This document shows positions 38,409 to 45,810 of a DNA stretch of 45,810 nucleotides, in pieces. The notes beneath the pieces were generated by a model that saw only the letters and a list, made by a program, of their open reading frames with translations, was not told the DNA's origin and did not search any database. Source of the DNA: a virus. Lineage: Duplodnaviria > Heunggongvirae > Uroviricota > Caudoviricetes. The stretch lies in the IMG/VR virus record IMGVR_UViG_2521172732_000010. The stretch is one strand, 5' to 3'. The number at the start of each line of letters is the position of its first letter. The stretch's first letter is position 1. The translations under genes and the position numbers were made by a program.

Positions 38409-38472
38409 TTAGCCAGGTAACACAGTGTTATGACAGCCCGCCGGTTCAGGCGGGCTTTTTTGTGGGGTGAAT

Positions 38473-41368
38473 ATGGCAGTAAAGATTTCAGGTGTACTGA
38501 AAGACGGCACAGGAAAACCGGTACAGAACTGCATAATCCAGCTGAAAGCAAAACGTAACAGCACCACGGTGGTGGTGAACACGCTGGCCTCAGAAAATCC
38601 GGATGAAGCCGGGCGTTACAGTATGGACGTTGAGTACGGTCAGTACAGCGTTATTCTGTTGGTGGAAGGGTTCCCGCCGTCACATGCCGGGACCATCACC
38701 GTGTATGAAGATTCCCGACCCGGTACGCTGAATGATTTTCTCGGTGCCATGACGGAGGATGATGCCCGTCCGGAGGCATTGCGACGTTTTGAACTGATGG
38801 TGGAAGAGGTGGCGCGTAACGCGTCCGCAGTGGCACAGAACACGGCAGCCGCGAAGAAGTCAGCCAGTGATGCCAGCACATCTGCCAGTGAGGCGGCAAC
38901 CCATGCGACTGATGCTGCAGATTCAGCACGTGCAGCCAGCACGTCAGCCGGACAGGCCGCGACGTCGGCTCAGGAGGCTTTTTCCAGCGCAGGAACGGCA
39001 TCAGCAAAAGCCTCTGAGGCATCAAAAAGTGCTGCCGCTGCAGAGTCCTCAAAAAGCGCGGCGGCTACCAGTGCCGGTGCGGCGAAAACGTCAGAAACGA
39101 ATGCGGCAGCGTCACAACAATCAGCAGCCACTTCTGCATCCACCGCGACCACGAAAGCGTCAGAAGCAGCCACTTCAGCACGGGATGCGTCGGCTTCAAA
39201 AGAGGCGGCAAAATCATCAGAAACGAACGCAGCCTCGAGCGCCAGCAGCGCAACTTCCTCGGCAACGGCGGCAGCAAATTCTGCGAAGGAGGCAAAAACG
39301 TCCGAGACGAACGCTAAGTCTTCTGAAACGGCAGCGGGACAGAGCGCCTCAGCTGCGGCAGGCTCAAAAACAGCGGCTGCGTCGTCTGCCAGTGCCGCGT
39401 CAACAAGTGCCGGGCAGGCCTCAGCCAGTGCCACCGCCGCCGGAAAATCGGCAGAAAGTGCTGCATCGTCTGCTTCAACAGCCACAACGAATGCTGGCGA
39501 AGCCGCTGTACAGGCCAGCGCAGCAGCGAGGTCTGCTTCCGCAGCGAAGACATCCGAGACGAACGCGAAAGCGTCGGAAACCAGCGCAGAATCCTCAAAA
39601 ACGGCTGCCGCATCATCCGCCAGTTCGGCGGCGTCATCGGCATCATCTGCGTCTGCTTCAAAAGATGAGGCGACCAGACAGGCGTCAGCAGCGAAGGGCA
39701 GCGCCACGACGGCATCCACGAAGGCGACAGAGGCAGCTGGTAGTGCGACGGCAGCAGCTCAGAGCAAAAGTACGGCGGAATCTGCAGCAACGCGCGCTGA
39801 GACAGCGGCAAAAACGGGCAGAGGATATTGCATCCGCCGTGGCGCTTGAGGATGCGAGCACGACGAAAAAGGGGATAGTACAGCTCAGCAGCGCGACCAA
39901 CAGCACGTCTGAAACGCTGGCGGCAACGCCAAAGGCAGTAAAAGCAGCCAATGACAATGCTGAGAAACGTCTGCAGAAAGATCAGAACGGTGCGGATATC
40001 CCTGGCAAAGACACCTTTACGAAAAATATTGGTGCCTGCCGTGCCTTCGGTGGGTCAGTAAGCACAACAACAGGAGACTGGACGACTGCACAGTTTATCG
40101 AGTGGCTGGATTCTCAGGGAGCATTTAACCATCCATACTGGATGTGCAAGGGTTCCTGGTCTTATGGCAATAATAAAATCATTACTGATACTGGTTGCGG
40201 TAATATTCATCTCGCCGGAGCTGTCATTGAAGTAATGGGGATAAAGTCAGCGATGACGATCCGCATTACCACACCGACCACCTCCACTGGTGGTGGAACA
40301 ACTAACGCCCAGTTTACCTATATTAATCACGGAACAGATTATTCACCTGGCTGGCGAAGGGACTATAACTCCAGAAATAAGCCAACGGCATCAGAGATCG
40401 GGGCGTTACCGTCAGGTGGAACAGCAGTATCATCAGTTAATCTGGCTTCAAAAGGTCGGGTAACTGCGCTTACAGACAATACGCAGGGGGCAACAGGTCT
40501 TGAGTTATACGAGGTGTATAACAACGGATATCCAACAGCGTATGGAAATATTATTCACCTGAAAGGGATGACAGCCGTTGGCGAAGGTGAGTTACTCATC
40601 GGCTGGAGTGGTACAAGCGGTGCTCATGCTCCGGCATTTATTCGTTCACGACGGGATACGACCGACGCAAACTGGTCGCCGTGGGCGCAGCTTTACACCT
40701 CAGCTCATCCTCCTGCAGAGTTTTATCCAGTCGGTGCACCAATCCCGTGGCCATCAGATACCGTTCCGTCTGGCTATGCCCTGATGCAGGGGCAGACTTT
40801 TGACAAATCTGCTTACCCGAAACTTGCAGCCGCTTATCCGTCAGGCGTGATCCCTGATATGCGTGGCTGGACGATTAAGGGCAAACCTGCCAGTGGTCGG
40901 GCCGTATTGTCTCAGGAACAGGACGGTATTAAATCGCACACCCACAGCGCCAGCGCATCCAGTACGGATTTGGGTACGAAAACCACATCGTCGTTTGATT
41001 ACGGCACTAAATCCACGAATAACACCGGGGCACATACACACAGTGTGAGCGGTACAGCCGCAAGTGCCGGAAACCATACTCATAGTGTCACAGGCGCATC
41101 AGCAGTCAGCCAGTGGTCACAAAATGGGTCAGTACATAAGGTAGTGTCTGCGGCCAGTGTGAATACAAGTGCTGCAGGAGCGCACACTCATAGTGTCAGC
41201 GGCACAGCTGCATCTGCAGGTGCTCACGCACATACTGTCGGTATTGGTGCTCATACGCACTCTGTTGCGATTGGTTCACATGGACACACCATCACCGTTA
41301 ACGCTGCGGGTAACGCGGAAAACACCGTCAAAAACATCGCATTTAACTACATTGTGAGGCTTGCATAA
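38473..41368 (+). pseudogene. stf: side tail fibre Stf, frame-disrupted as sequenced
   Basis: N-terminal frame MAVKISGVLKDGTGKPVQNC... ends at 39849; the +1 frame continues ...[17 protein letters not shown]... to the Stf C-terminus ...[15 protein letters not shown]; junction is an A-run (39810-39814). Confidence 0.75.
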
Positions 41369-41949
41369 TGGCATTCAGAATGAGTGAACAACCACGGACC
41401 ATAAAAATTTATAATCTGCTGACCGGAACTAATGAATTTATTGGTGAAGGTGACGCATATATTCCGCCTCATACAGGTCTGCCAGCAAACAGTACCTATA
41501 TTGCACCGCCAGATATTCCGGCTGGCTTCGTGGCTGTTTTCAACAGTGATGAGTCATCGTGGCATCTCGTTGAAGATCATCGGGGTAAAACGGTTTATGA
41601 CGTGGCTTCCGGCGACGCGTTATTTATTTCTGAACTCGGCTCATTACCGGAAAATGTTACCTGGTTATCGCCGGAAGGGGAGTTTCAGAAGTGGAACGGC
41701 ACAGCCTGGGTGAAAGATGCAGAAGCAGAAAAACTGTTCCGGATCCGGGAGGCGGAAGAAACAAAAAACAGCCTGATGCAGGTAGCCAGTGAGCATATTG
41801 CGCCACTTCAGGATGCTGTAGATCTGGAAATCGCAACGGAGGAAGAAACCTCATTGCTGGAAGCCTGGAAAAAGTATCGGGTGTTGCTGAACCGTGTTGA
41901 TACATCAACTGCACCTGATATTGAGTGGCCTGTAATACCTGAAGTTTAA
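41368..41949 (+). CDS. tfa: tail fibre assembly protein
   Basis: 193-aa [40 protein letters not shown]... Confidence 0.9.
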
Positions 41950-41954
41950 AATAA

Positions 41955-41980
41955 AAGCCCGCTTAAAATATCGCGGGCTT
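41955..41980. terminator. hairpin between tfa and katN (possible bidirectional terminator)
   Basis: aagcccgc-(10 nt)-gcgggctt stem-loop immediately after the tfa stop; the T-rich flank is on the minus strand. Confidence 0.5.
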
Positions 41981-42068
41981 CGAAATATAAATGTATTTTC
42001 AGAGGCTAGAGCTTAGGATATCTCAGCGGCAATTAACTTATGAGGGATAGCTAAATACCAGAAGATAA

Positions 42069-42959
42069 TTAGTTTTTACTATTTATCTTTGTTTGTGGTT
42101 CTCCTTCAGCAAGCTCAGCGCCAGTGACAGGATTGATGTCTTCATGGGATTTCAACCTTGTTGCCATAGCTTTTATCATAGCTTCTTGCTTGGTCGAAAG
42201 ATTTATCGAGGCCTTCCCATCCCCACCGTCAACCGCTGGAACTGGATCGGAAACATAGTCAAAGTTTTCATCACTGTTCCAACTACCTCTGACGTCTTCA
42301 CCTTCTGACATGTTGTAATATACGTTTTTGTATTTCTCAAGTGGTGGTAATTTTCCTGGTGGAAAGGTGTTACGAATTGAATGTAATGCTTTTTCAAATG
42401 AAAGCATGTGTGCTGCTTCCCTGGTCATTAAAAATGCCAGAGTGTCTTTTACTCCAGGATCATCAGTAACATTAATGAGACGTTCGTAAATGATCTTTGC
42501 CCGAGCTTCAGCTGCAATATTTGAACGAAGATCGGCCGTGACTTCGCCAATAGTATCAACATAAGCTGCAGTCCAGGGTACTCCAGCTGAATTAGTTAAT
42601 GCTGGGCCTCCTCCGTAGAGGAGAGAAGTTATATGGCTATCATTGCCATTTTGAGTTAAGGAACGGTAAAGCTCAGCTTCATTCTCAGTTCCTTCAGCAA
42701 GTGCTCCTTTTGCACCTTTGTTGAGCATACCAACAAGAGAACCAATAATTTCGAGATGACTTAGTTCTTCTGTTGCTATGTCCATCAGCATATCCCTTCG
42801 GCCTGCATCTTCATCACTTAAGCCTTGAGTGAAGTATCGGCATGCTGCTGCAAGCTCACCCTGTGGCCCACCGAATTGTTCTAAGAGTAGATTAGCCAAG
42901 CCTGGGTTTGGCTCACTTACACGTACTGTATATTGAAGTTTTTTCACGTGTCTAAACAT
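42069..42959 (-). CDS. katN: manganese catalase (KatN-like, ferritin-like superfamily)
   Basis: 296-aa ORF with Mn-catalase-like sequence (LSDEDAGRRDMLMDIATEELSHLEIIG...), last gene of a yciG-yciF-yciE-katN arrangement. Confidence 0.75.
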   Translation of the reverse strand: MFRHVKKLQYTVRVSEPNPGLANLLLEQFGGPQGELAAACRYFTQGLSDEDAGRRDMLMDIATEELSHLEIIGSLVGMLNKGAKGALAEGTENEAELYRSLTQNGNDSHITSLLYGGGPALTNSAGVPWTAAYVDTIGEVTADLRSNIAAEARAKIIYERLINVTDDPGVKDTLAFLMTREAAHMLSFEKALHSIRNTFPPGKLPPLEKYKNVYYNMSEGEDVRGSWNSDENFDYVSDPVPAVDGGDGKASINLSTKQEAMIKAMATRLKSHEDINPVTGAELAEGEPQTKINSKN

Positions 42960-42977
42960 AATGCCTCCTCAAAAGAA

Positions 42978-43484
42978 TTATTTTTTGGCTTCAACTCCAT
43001 CAATTTCAGATCTGACCATGAATTGCTCAGTGGTGTCAGGAATATGGTTAAGAAGCCATTCAGCCATTTGTTTTTCTTCATTAAGAATTGCTTCAATAAT
43101 GGGTACTGAAGCTGTATCACCCGCATTTTTGGCTGCTGCGAGAAGAGATGTGTAACACGCAATTTCAAATTGTTCGAACACATAGCCACTGATCGAACCT
43201 TTGACAATTTCATCAGATGGAAAAATTCCACCAATGGATTGTCCAAACGCGGCCATTTTACTCATAGAGTCTTTAATGACAGAGCGCGAAATATTATTAC
43301 GATCAAGTATGCTTTCAAGCTGTGAAAGCTGGTTCTTTGTTTCGCTAATGTGCTGCTCAATTCTGGAACGTAACTCAGGATAGTTTTCTATCCGGCTGGC
43401 CATAGACTCAAGCATTTTTTCAGCTTGTTTTTCCATCGCATGTGCATCACGAAGCCAGTCATGGTAATGTTCAATTCTATTCAT
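42978..43484 (-). CDS. yciE: YciE-like ferritin-like (DUF892) stress protein
   Basis: 168-aa ORF MNRIEHYHDWLRDAHAMEKQAEKMLESMASRIENYPELR... Confidence 0.8.
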   Translation of the reverse strand: MNRIEHYHDWLRDAHAMEKQAEKMLESMASRIENYPELRSRIEQHISETKNQLSQLESILDRNNISRSVIKDSMSKMAAFGQSIGGIFPSDEIVKGSISGYVFEQFEIACYTSLLAAAKNAGDTASVPIIEAILNEEKQMAEWLLNHIPDTTEQFMVRSEIDGVEAKK

Positions 43485-43520
43485 AATCTGTTTATCCTAA
43501 AAGAAATTGAAGTCTATAAT

Positions 43521-44027
43521 TCAGGAGTTATCCTGAGCTTTTTTATTAACGTTATTAAATGCCAGGTCTGTTAATTTGACATCAGTAGCTTTTTCCTCTT
43601 CCAGTGTTTCTTTCAGGAGTTTAGCCGCTTTTTTATATCCTAATTGCTCAGCGAGTGTTACCAAAGTGCCATAACTGGCAATTTCATAGTGCTCTACTTT
43701 TTGTGCTGCAGCAATCAATGCAGCATCACGTACTTCATTTTTATCAGTGCTTTCAATTACCTCATTCGCCTCTTCGATAAGTCCTTCCATTGCGGCACAC
43801 TTAATTCTTTTCAATTTAAGACCATCTTCAGAATCAACAACCTGATCGATGCGTTCAATTTGACCATGTGTCTCATCAAGATGTGACTGAAAAGCAGCGG
43901 TTAATTTATCACTATATGCAGAGCGACTAAGTTTAGACAGTGCCTTTGTTAGTTGTTTCTCAGCGCTGTATGTATCCGATAATAAGTGGATGAAGATATC
44001 TTCAACAGATTTAATTTGCATAATCAC
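43521..44027 (-). CDS. yciF: YciF-like ferritin-like (DUF892) stress protein
   Basis: 168-aa ORF ...SVEDIFIHLLSDTYSAEKQLTKALSKL...; start codon uncertain. Confidence 0.8.
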   Translation of the reverse strand: MIMQIKSVEDIFIHLLSDTYSAEKQLTKALSKLSRSAYSDKLTAAFQSHLDETHGQIERIDQVVDSEDGLKLKRIKCAAMEGLIEEANEVIESTDKNEVRDAALIAAAQKVEHYEIASYGTLVTLAEQLGYKKAAKLLKETLEEEKATDVKLTDLAFNNVNKKAQDNS

Positions 44028-44099
44028 TCCAGAGTTTTCACTGCGAGCCCGTAGGCTCGCAGTTAGCTTCAGTTATTCACGAATGTAGGGGGTGATAAA

Positions 44100-44282
44100 T
44101 TAAGAGCCAGATTTACGGCCGCCACCATGGCTATTCTGACCACCTTTTTTCCCTGCTTCTGATGCTCTTTGTGGATCGTTTTTAAAATTACCGCCACTAT
44201 GTTGGCCGCCTTTACTACCAGCGTCAGAAGCTTTTTGTCGATCTTCAGCGAAATTACCTGCACCGCCACGATGTTCGGTCAT
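44100..44282 (-). CDS. yciG: YciG-like KGG-repeat general stress protein
   Basis: 60-aa Gly-rich ORF with repeated KGGQ-type motifs. Confidence 0.75.
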   Translation of the reverse strand: MTEHRGGAGNFAEDRQKASDAGSKGGQHSGGNFKNDPQRASEAGKKGGQNSHGGGRKSGS

Positions 44283-44724
44283 ATCATTTCTCCTCTGATT
44301 TTCAAATTGTAAATAACATGTGCCTTGTCAGCACCCAATTAACTCTAGTAACAAATAAGAAAGTGTCAAATAAGAGATTGGTATGCGCATCTTAATGTGA
44401 GAAATAGCAATTGTAAAAATGTGTACTCAGTGAGTATAATCTATTGATATCTTGGTGATTAACGGAAAGTTTAGGTTGTAACTCAAAAGATTAATAAATC
44501 TAAATTTACATTTCTATATCTTTTGATGTGTATGGCGTTGTTTTTCTCAATCAGAACATTCTAAAAAATAATTTAATTACACGGCGGTAGTTGTTAATGT
44601 TTTTACGACTCTTCCTAATGAAGTCTGTTTCTTGGATAAATAGAGAAATTTTATCTTAAGGACTAATTACAAAAACATCTATATAGCCACAGGAATCATT
44701 ATTGTACTTAACTACAATATTTGA

Positions 44725-44774
44725 GAGTAAAAATTAAACCGCAGACACGGCGTATGCAAGAACGTGCTGCGGTT
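44725..44774 (-). terminator. intrinsic terminator downstream of the methyltransferase gene
   Basis: Minus-strand hairpin aaccgcagcacg...cgtgtctgcggtt followed by taattttt. Confidence 0.6.
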
Positions 44775-44779
44775 GGATG

Positions 44780-45448
44780 CTATTTTTTCCCTGAAGCGGA
44801 AAACATTACTACAGTACCTTGAACCTTGGTTTTAACATTCTCGAAATGCTCTGAGAGTATATGTGTTAAGCCTTCTTCGGAATCTTTTGTGTTTGAAAAG
44901 ATGCCTTTCTGATTGTAAATGCGCATCAGTTTTTGACCGAAGCTATTGTGCACAACTCCATCGCCAAGAATTGTGGCTCCGTATAGAGTTCCATCGTCAG
45001 TTAAGGCCTGCGCCGCATTGCGTATTACACAGCTTTTTGTAGATATATTTCCAGGCAGGCAGTGAAGAAGGTAAAACATGGAAATGGAATCAAATTGACC
45101 ATGTAACGCCGCGGGATAAGGTTCAAAAACATCATGGCTAATTTTATGTTTAATTTTTGATTCCCCAGCCCTTGTAGATGCCGCGTTCAGGCTAGCTTCG
45201 TTCAAATCCATTAAAGATATCAGACTACTCTCAGGTACGTGAGTAAGGTAAAACCCAGTTCCAACACCAATATCCAGATGGTTGTTACCTAAATGTTCCA
45301 GAAAGTGTGGAAGAAGGTGTTCCTTTGTAGGACATCCCCATGCAAGACGATTTGATACTCCCAAAACCCACCAGTCATAAAGCTTTAGGGTAAGTGGTGT
45401 GTAAATTTTAGCCCCATCATCTGTGTTTTTTTTCATTAATTTCACCAT
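44780..45448 (-). CDS. class I SAM-dependent methyltransferase (substrate unknown)
   Basis: 222-aa ORF with motif I LDIGVGTGF. Confidence 0.65.
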   Translation of the reverse strand: MVKLMKKNTDDGAKIYTPLTLKLYDWWVLGVSNRLAWGCPTKEHLLPHFLEHLGNNHLDIGVGTGFYLTHVPESSLISLMDLNEASLNAASTRAGESKIKHKISHDVFEPYPAALHGQFDSISMFYLLHCLPGNISTKSCVIRNAAQALTDDGTLYGATILGDGVVHNSFGQKLMRIYNQKGIFSNTKDSEEGLTHILSEHFENVKTKVQGTVVMFSASGKK

Positions 45449-45504
45449 GTTATAGTTTTATTTGTGAATTAAATCAATTATGGCGATGAATTACAAGGGG
45501 TTAA

Positions 45505-45810
45505 ATGCTGCCGCAGCATAGCGATATTGAAATAGCCTGGTATGCTGCGATACAGCAGGAGCCGAATGGCTGGAAGACCGTCACCACACAGTTCTACATC
45601 CAGGAATTCAGTGAGTATATTGCGCCACTGCAGGATGCTGTAGATCTGGAAATCGCAACGGAGGAAGAAAGATCGTTGCTGGAGGCATGGAATAAATATC
45701 GGGTATTGTTGAATCGTGTTGATACATCAGTAGCTCTGGGTATGAAGCTGTTTGTAACTCATGTTACAGTAATGGCTATTACTATCTCGAAGGTGCAAAA
45801 TGTATATTGA
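45505..45810 (+). pseudogene. truncated tail fibre assembly (tfa) C-terminal remnant
   Basis: Contains ...[37 protein letters not shown], about 90 percent identical at DNA level to 41788-41907 of tfa, but lacks the tfa N-terminal region and has a divergent tail. Confidence 0.6.
45610..45729 (+). repeat. about 120-bp direct repeat of tfa 41788-41907
   Basis: agtgag(c/t)atattgcgccact(t/g)caggatgctgtagatctggaaatcgcaacggaggaagaaa... present at both positions in the same orientation. Confidence 0.85.

Follow-up and report, generated by a model that had tools for sequence, protein, structure and literature searches.

A yciGFE-katN stress-defence cassette behind the tail-fibre assembly gene of a lambda-like prophage of Escherichia coli

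The virus record IMGVR_UViG_2521172732_000010 of IMG/VR (Caudoviricetes) is a stretch of DNA of 45,810 nucleotides, referred to here in its full length as the window. The right end of the window, positions 41950–45810, carries a four-gene stress-resistance operon of the yciG-yciF-yciE-katN type, a methyltransferase gene, and a remnant of a tail-fibre assembly gene, denoted tfa′. The window spans from the stop codon of int to the end of tfa′ and includes neither of the attachment (att) sites. The nearest complete genome is that of Escherichia coli O111:H21 strain 15A, which is 100% identical over positions 41300–45810. An earlier note on this DNA had interpreted the segment as stress-resistance cargo located between tfa and a truncated second copy of that gene. 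The features of the segment are:

41368–41949, plus strand: tfa, tail-fibre assembly gene (Pfam Caudo_TAP, E-value 3e-45)
41776–41935, plus strand: direct-repeat copy inside tfa (repeat search; the partner is 45598–45757)
41954–41981, minus strand: T1, intrinsic-terminator-like hairpin of the katN operon (RNA fold, −16 kcal/mol)
42069–42959, minus strand: katN, manganese (non-haem) catalase of 296 residues (Pfam Mn_catalase, 292 bits, E-value 5e-87)
42978–43484, minus strand: yciE paralogue, DUF892, ferritin-like (Pfam DUF892, E-value 1e-50)
43521–44021/44027, minus strand: yciF paralogue, DUF892, ferritin-like (Pfam DUF892, E-value 3e-54)
44100–44282, minus strand: yciG paralogue, KGG-repeat general stress protein (Pfam KGG, E-value 2e-16)
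44283–44737, minus strand: AT-rich leader or regulatory region of the operon (composition, 28.6% GC)
44342–44369, minus strand: promoter-like site (consensus scan, 10/12, and reading of the sequence)
44738–44774, minus strand: T2, hairpin terminating the methyltransferase gene (RNA fold, −19 kcal/mol)
44780–45448, minus strand: class I S-adenosylmethionine-dependent methyltransferase (Pfam Methyltransf_12/23/25/11; phrog_2132, E-value 8e-157)
45598–45810, to the end of the window, plus strand: tfa′, C-terminal tfa remnant, counterpart of tfaX of E. coli K-12 (matches only positions 75–121 of 131 of the Caudo_TAP profile)

All the open reading frames (ORFs) that the earlier note had assigned to yciG, yciF, yciE, katN, the methyltransferase, and tfa are found where it had placed them, with Pfam backing each identity, and its recognition of a C-terminal tfa remnant on the right is borne out by the partial Caudo_TAP match. 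The ORF of the remnant comprises positions 45505–45810 of the plus strand and is annotated as a RefSeq pseudogene in strain 15A. The gene order yciG-yciF-yciE-katN with the domains KGG, DUF892, DUF892, and Mn_catalase is that of yciGFE(katN) operons, and all four proteins have families in PHROGs. The direct repeat shared by tfa and tfa′ is 160 nucleotides long, gapless, and 82% identical. Its core (41787–41907 versus 45609–45729) comprises 121 nucleotides with about 89–90% identity according to BLAST; therefore, the earlier estimate of a repeat of approximately 120 base pairs was fair.

The four stress genes belong to a discrete unit of about 2.8 kb, positions 41932–44737, which has its own tfa 3′ end and its own hairpin T1, and is bounded on the right by T2. 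The left border of this cassette, 41931/41932, lies inside the last six codons of tfa. Within tfa, sequence identity with tfaD of K-12 and with phage PhiR29_1 breaks off after 41931, and the last 18 nucleotides of the gene (41932–41949, encoding ...VIPEV*) are part of the inserted cassette and not of the backbone. The right border is positioned at approximately 44732–44738, at T2. The tfaD-ybcY region of the K-12 prophage DLP12 matches the window at 97% identity on both sides of the cassette, as far as 41931 on the left and from 44733 on the right. In DLP12, these two points are about 29 base pairs apart, and phages PhiR29_1 and 2G7b show the same insertion boundaries. The spacing from tfa to the methyltransferase gene is about 29–55 base pairs in DLP12 and PhiR29_1 versus 2.8 kb in the window; the cassette thus separates genes that are neighbours in related phages, as morons do. 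T1 is missing from the cassette-free backbones, whereas a hairpin equivalent to T2 is found behind tfa in the alignments of the cassette-free PhiR29_1, 2G7b, and DLP12, where it marks the right border of the cassette. T2 is also kept in contexts without the methyltransferase gene. In phage Turner, the slot of the cassette is occupied by a DNA invertase gene and small ORFs, which identifies the position behind tfa as a variable hot spot.

The cassette and the methyltransferase gene with tfa′ are two independent modules, because each of them occurs without the other. The isolated phages PhiR29_1, 2G7b, ev243, and Turner contain tfa, the methyltransferase gene, tfa′, a hydrolase gene, and ompT, and lack yciGFE-katN; the methyltransferase gene and tfa′ are also present without the cassette in K-12 DLP12, as ybcY-tfaX. 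Conversely, the cassette directly follows tfa, without the methyltransferase gene and tfa′, in a prophage of strain A37 with its right end at zinT and in a prophage of strain 100181 with its right end at ydfJ. Homology to the window stops at 44776 in A37 and at 44745 in 100181. The methyltransferase gene and tfa′ are conserved lambdoid backbone. The proposal of a moron cassette in the earlier note consequently holds for yciGFE-katN, which has the anatomy of a moron, and fails for the methyltransferase gene as part of the same cargo.

The base composition of the segment agrees with the earlier description of it as more AT-rich than the lambda genes. The guanine–cytosine (GC) content is 56.3% in the late region, 38.9% in the cassette, and 40.7% in the methyltransferase gene. 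The GC content at third codon positions is 0.25–0.33 in the genes of the cassette versus 0.42–0.49 in the surrounding phage genes. Such deviant composition is a further property of morons. The leader, which had been estimated at roughly 500 base pairs, is 455 base pairs long, and the distance from yciG to the stop codon of the methyltransferase gene is 497 base pairs. Hairpin T1, downstream of katN, has a 9-base-pair stem and a 10-nucleotide loop, followed by UUUUAUUUU on the minus strand. Hairpin T2 lies directly 3′ of the stop codon of the methyltransferase gene and is followed by UUUAAUUUUU on the minus strand, in accord with the earlier view that this gene is terminated separately. Both hairpins have a U-tract on the minus strand, and the one behind katN forms a clear terminator structure.

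A promoter-like site, TTGACA-16-TAGAGT, is located about 60–87 nucleotides upstream of the ATG of yciG, which is itself preceded by a Shine-Dalgarno sequence. The site has a C at position −13 and the triplet TAA after the −10 element, which are features of sigma-S promoters. The leader, with its low GC content, is likely a target of H-NS. It also contains, at 44483–44526, an AT-rich inverted repeat of 22 nucleotides without a spacer, 82% complementary and positioned about 115 nucleotides upstream of the promoter-like site, which may be a binding site for a regulator. An Rfam scan detected no regulatory RNA in the leader, and its sole strong match, RF02111 ('IS009'), is to tfa coding sequence. 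RF02111, a candidate small RNA from K-12 screens, matches the 3′ coding part of tfa (41711–41909) at 229 bits, with a gathering score of 117, and the tfa′ remnant (45528–45731) at 109 bits; it appears to be tfa sequence and not an independent RNA gene.

The leader is 84–87% identical between prophage contexts, and the coding sequences are about 99% identical. In the two loci whose leaders were compared with positions 44283–44737 (L097, 11334–11795, and L098, 11334–11797), the four coding sequences differ in 11–22 of 694 codons. By these comparisons, the regulatory region changes far more rapidly than the genes of the cassette, either through evolution in place or through exchange. The ratio of non-synonymous to synonymous substitution rates between contexts is uninformative, because only 4–22 codons differ.

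The prophage of strain 15A provides the context of the segment. Its left part consists, in order, of icd, int, xis, lambda-like early genes, Q, lysis genes, terminase, and head and tail genes. The right part continues with J, lom, stf, tfa, the cassette, the methyltransferase gene, tfa′, and genes for an alpha/beta hydrolase, OmpT, a helix-turn-helix regulator, and an acetyltransferase, and ends with icd′ and iraM. icd′ is a 168-nucleotide icd pseudogene, and iraM is a host gene. The prophage is flanked by a 217-base-pair repeat of the 3′ end of icd together with its terminator, the copies of which are about 95% identical, and int and xis adjoin icd. Integration into icd is known from e14 and phage 21, and the prophage of strain 15A is of this type. 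The duplicated 3′ end of icd, which is attR, lies about 4.8 kb past the end of the window; an IS903B insertion in the window shifts the offset between the window and this genome. No att site was found at 41950–42068. The segment is prophage DNA at the position and in the orientation of the b region of lambda, as the earlier note had proposed, and not flanking chromosome, since the prophage of strain 15A continues past the end of the window to icd′.

The remainder of the b-region equivalent lies past the window end in strain 15A (L001, 24695–28864) and encodes the alpha/beta hydrolase, OmpT (a protease of the outer membrane), a regulator of the Xre/cupin type, and an acetyltransferase of the GNAT family. 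The ompT gene is phage cargo both in the prophage of strain 15A and in PhiR29_1 and 2G7b, which are isolated phages. Phage Turner has an ORF of 954 nucleotides collinear with ompT, which is annotated only as hypothetical.

KatN scores 292 bits against the Pfam family PF05067, the cut-off of which is 27; its score of 167 for the narrower NCBIfam equivalog ManCatBAC is below the 350 needed. The protein matches manganese catalases in the Protein Data Bank (PDB), namely 6J42/4R42 with an E-value of 5e-47 and 1JKU with an E-value of 9e-35. Its motifs around E35, E65/H68, E151, and E181/H184 align with those of the manganese catalase structures, and residues E35, E65, H68, E151, and H184 lie in motifs that are aligned identically with the Anabaena manganese catalase 6J42/4R42. 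On the basis of PDB entry 1JKU, these residues (Glu, Glu, His, Glu, His) are taken as the ligands of the di-manganese centre.

The cassette is a genuine moron that was already known, because it is the same element as Z1921–Z1924 of prophage CP-933X of E. coli O157:H7. O157:H7 genomes contain the cassette with 99.8% DNA identity, KatN being 99.7% and YciE and YciF 100% identical; YciG of the window differs in two residues. The O157:H7 copy has the same neighbours, tfa on one side and the methyltransferase gene, tfa′, the hydrolase gene, and ompT on the other, and occupies the same part of the chromosome, the icd/min region. However, in most O157:H7 genomes ISEc8 lies within or behind tfa′, and a deletion at IS1203 has removed the prophage's right end, whereas strain 15A keeps an intact right end up to icd′. 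The window additionally differs from the O157:H7 copy by its IS903B insertion and a frameshift in stf. In O157:H7 strain PA20 (L096, 15649–18311 and 22227–23631), ISEc8 is inserted in tfa′, and the acetyltransferase gene is cut short by IS1203, which connects it to an autotransporter remnant beside minE; therefore, this genome has lost the prophage's right end with attR, as well as the host genes as far as min.

The function of the O157:H7 copy has been published. Z1921 is KatN, and Z1921–Z1924 form an operon on CP-933X of strain EDL933 (PMC5363993); the CP-933X protein was reclassified as a manganese catalase in 2008 (PMC2631583). Z1921 of EDL933 has a catalase activity of 268 U/mg, and deletion of katN causes a growth defect at 1–2 mM H2O2, which is restored by complementation (PMC5363993). 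RpoS is essential for the expression of katN in O157:H7 and OxyR stimulates it, and its transcription increases more than 450-fold in an hns mutant (PMC5363993). Genes Z1922, Z1923, and Z1924 of O-island 52 (CP-933X) are 35-, 64-, and 137-fold RpoS-dependent (PMC2907692), and the RpoS-dependent expression of the O157:H7 copy takes place without prophage induction (PMC2907692, PMC5363993). KatN of EDL933 has been reported to be secreted in dependence on the T6SS (type VI secretion system) and to support survival within macrophages (PMC5363993); the window contains no T6SS genes, adaptor domains, or marker domains. The tests of RpoS-dependent expression and peroxide resistance proposed in the earlier note have thus already been performed in enterohaemorrhagic E. 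coli (EHEC) with the predicted outcome (PMC5363993, PMC2907692), and its suggestion that the operon confers stress tolerance on the lysogen is supported by the RpoS dependence and H2O2 protection published for this 99.8%-identical copy. We infer that the copy in the window behaves like that of O157:H7.

The cassette shares its gene order and Pfam families with chromosomal yciGFE(katN) loci and is collinear with those of Salmonella, Enterobacter, and Klebsiella over 42217–44294; the control by RpoS and H-NS described in the literature is also common to them. By contrast, its identity to the chromosomal loci is only 73–74% in nucleotides and 80–91% in amino acids, and its leader and 3′ terminator have no detectable homology to theirs; no homologue of the leader was found upstream of chromosomal yciG loci. 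Among 5426 complete E. coli genomes that were surveyed, 4730 have a chromosomal yciGFE between ompW and trpA, without katN. The cassette is 74% identical in nucleotides to yciGFE of K-12, and the amino acid identity is 88% for YciE, 80% for YciF, and 91% over 43 residues for YciG. The cassette is therefore a second, foreign copy, and because it is located in a prophage and not next to trp and ompW, it is a xenologous or paralogous copy and not an orthologue.

Like the morons of lambdoid phages (bor and lom of lambda, and those of HK97 and HK022), the cassette appears to be an autonomous unit, with a promoter-like site and a terminator, and its expression in the lysogen and benefit to the host have been published for the O157:H7 copy. 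Unlike them, it is an operon of four genes instead of a single gene, is regulated by the general stress sigma factor of the host, and has not yet been seen in the genome of an isolated viable phage among 50,697 phage records. The surroundings of the cassette resemble the tfaD-ybcY-tfaX-appY-ompT region of K-12 DLP12, with 97% identity of the methyltransferase gene and tfa′ to ybcY-tfaX and of tfa to tfaD. However, ybcY is a pseudogene in K-12 whereas the methyltransferase gene of the window is intact, K-12 has no cassette between tfaD and ybcY, and appY takes the place of the hydrolase gene in K-12.

The cassette is present in 382 of the 5426 genomes, mostly of O157:H7 and always in the chromosome. 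It is complete in 381 of the carriers, and 345–350 of them have the same tfa and methyltransferase neighbours. Further contexts with identical KatN are a remnant of the DLP12 type that adjoins ompT-envY, a locus with a tail fibre of the S74 type and the junction inside tfa at the window-equivalent position 41807, a context with an AraC regulator and an integrase, and locus L110, in which everything left of 42015 is replaced by type IV pilus genes. The cassette adjoins tfa or another tail-fibre gene in every inspected context except L110, and it does so at several different chromosomal sites; it is not confined to one fixed position, which the earlier note would have taken as evidence against phage cargo. 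The cassette usually travels with tail-fibre genes. In strain Z0117EC0098 (L100, 8029–9056), it is truncated within yciE and lies beside an invertase-type recombinase gene and P2-like tail genes, which represents decay or rearrangement.

The best chromosomal katN loci, from a search of one genome per species in 185,579 species, are those of Kosakonia, Phytobacter, Yokenella, and Salmonella. They have at most 73% nucleotide and 84–87% amino acid identity, and their leaders and 3′ ends have no homology to those of the cassette. In a search of 5.8 billion protein clusters, KatN of the prophages forms an isolated cluster, and the next clusters are at most 87% identical; a Citrobacter cronae protein (WP_199951592.1) with 94% identity is a member of the prophage cluster. 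The phage records contain only fragments of 1.6–2.2 kb with a Salmonella-type katN of 84% identity, and the matches in IMG/VR are provirus calls from isolate genomes.

It is highly probable that the b-region equivalent of a defective lambda-like prophage at icd begins with this segment, which carries two independent accessory modules, the first of which is a stress moron. This first module is an AT-rich paralogue of the sigma-S-dependent operon yciG-yciF-yciE-katN of enterobacteria, placed between the final codons of tfa and the hairpin behind that gene. It would be transcribed leftward from its own promoter near 44342–44369, the exact position of which is a prediction, independently of phage late transcription and insulated by T2 from the methyltransferase gene. 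Binding of H-NS to the leader of 29% GC would silence the module, and RpoS would activate it in stationary phase or under stress; the transcript would end at T1, before tfa. The module would yield a catalase with a di-manganese centre for the removal of H2O2, a pair of ferritin-like proteins of the DUF892 family, and a stress protein with KGG repeats, which together would add oxidative and stationary-phase protection to that provided by the chromosomal yciGFE, which is itself without katN. The second module is the ybcY-type methyltransferase gene with the tfaX-type tfa remnant, belonging to the conserved lambdoid backbone.

Several points weigh against parts of this interpretation. The extent of the prophage is deduced from strain 15A as the closest complete genome, because the window holds neither att site. 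The promoter assignment is a match to a consensus, and the scan gave 15 promoter-like sites versus 11.7 expected by chance. All expression and phenotype data come from O157:H7 and not from the strain of the window. A donor of the cassette was not found among the 185,579 species genomes and 5.8 billion protein clusters. No complete genome of an isolated phage with this katN is among the 50,697 phage records; therefore, present-day transmission of the cassette by phage is unproven. The prophage also looks defective because of a nonsense codon in the capsid gene, the frameshift in stf, and the IS903B insertion.

The major capsid gene, 24974–25999, has an in-frame TAA at codon 233 (stop at 25670), as in strain 15A, where it is a RefSeq pseudogene, a defect that probably prevents the prophage from forming heads. 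In stf, 38473–41368, a run of five A near 39810, compared with four in strain 15A, causes a +1 frameshift that truncates Stf at 39849 and leaves the overlapping ORFs 38467–39849 and 38867–41368. A frameshift in stf is known from lambda PaPa, which that of the window recalls; the additional A could instead be a homopolymer sequencing error. The IS903B-like element of the IS5 family, 1648–2704, with a transposase ORF at 1680–2648 and a 9-base-pair target duplication (1639–1647 and 2705–2713), is located in the early-left region between xis and genes for DUF4222 and DksA-like proteins and is not present in the near-identical prophage of strain 15A. The window also contains genes of tRNA-Ile(gat), 14592–14666, and tRNA-Thr(tgt), 14672–14747, between those of the Q antiterminator and the holin; the annotation of strain 15A lists only the tRNA-Thr.

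The earlier note had proposed that yciGFE-katN and the methyltransferase gene are a single cargo captured by recombination between two copies of tfa. The 160-nucleotide repeat brackets the block, and recombination inside tfa does occur, as shown by the junctions of two loci (L111 and L118) at the window-equivalent position 41807. However, the borders of the cassette, at 41931 and approximately 44733–44737, are away from the repeat, and each module is found without the other, which makes this origin very unlikely. The right edge of the cassette (44560–44737) has no significant similarity to the tfa 3′ end in a local alignment, in which 484 of 500 shuffled sequences reached or exceeded its score. 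A reading of this edge as a degenerate tfa 3′ end was rejected by the shuffle test, and the short resemblance of GAGAGTAA and GGGAGTAA is not significant.

Alternatively, the cassette might be an inert, decaying passenger of a dead prophage without benefit to the host. The defects of the prophage, the genome with the cassette truncated within yciE, and the one that has lost everything to the left of 42015 are consistent with this. By contrast, the four ORFs are intact in the window as the cassette is in nearly all carriers, the proteins are 98–100% identical between contexts whose leaders differ by 13–16%, the metal-ligand motifs are conserved, and deletion and complementation phenotypes as well as enzyme activity have been published for the O157:H7 copy (PMC5363993). 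It is highly unlikely that the cassette is inert. The possibility that the prophage stops directly after tfa and that yci-katN is host chromosome beside another prophage remnant has a minimal probability and is refuted by the context: the AT-richness and opposite strand of the segment, the chromosomal homologues next to trpA and ompW in K-12, and the frequent ending of IMG/VR provirus calls about 119 nucleotides past tfa speak for it, but isolated phages have the methyltransferase gene, tfa′, hydrolase gene, and ompT between tfa and int, attR of strain 15A lies about 4.8 kb past the window, tail-fibre genes precede the cassette at several chromosomal sites that are unrelated to each other, and the true chromosomal yciGFE is elsewhere and only 74% identical.

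The identification of the segment as b-region DNA with a stress moron adds to the published knowledge of the O157:H7 element the exact boundaries of the insertion, the separation of the cassette from the backbone module of the methyltransferase gene and tfa′, the presence of the same unit in several lambdoid prophages at different attachment sites, and the lack of a close chromosomal donor. A more speculative possibility, which we regard as doubtful, is that the cassette is a phage-transmissible module of lysogenic conversion that moves by recombination among tail-fibre and tfa genes, with its leader re-tuned after transfer and with some carriers being inducible. Movement by recombination in the tail-fibre and tfa region would account for the presence of the cassette at at least five integration sites or backbones, and the divergence of the leader by 13–16%, compared with about 1% in the coding sequences, would reflect its re-tuning. 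The lack of relatives above 87% amino acid identity outside the prophage KatN cluster would then point to a long stay in phages and not to a recent capture from a chromosome. If so, some inducible carriers could hand the reportedly T6SS-secreted catalase to naive E. coli. In EHEC, the operon contributes to peroxide resistance and survival in macrophages, as already published, and the cassette is a clear example, published for O157:H7, of a prophage giving its lysogen a host-regulated stress-defence operon.

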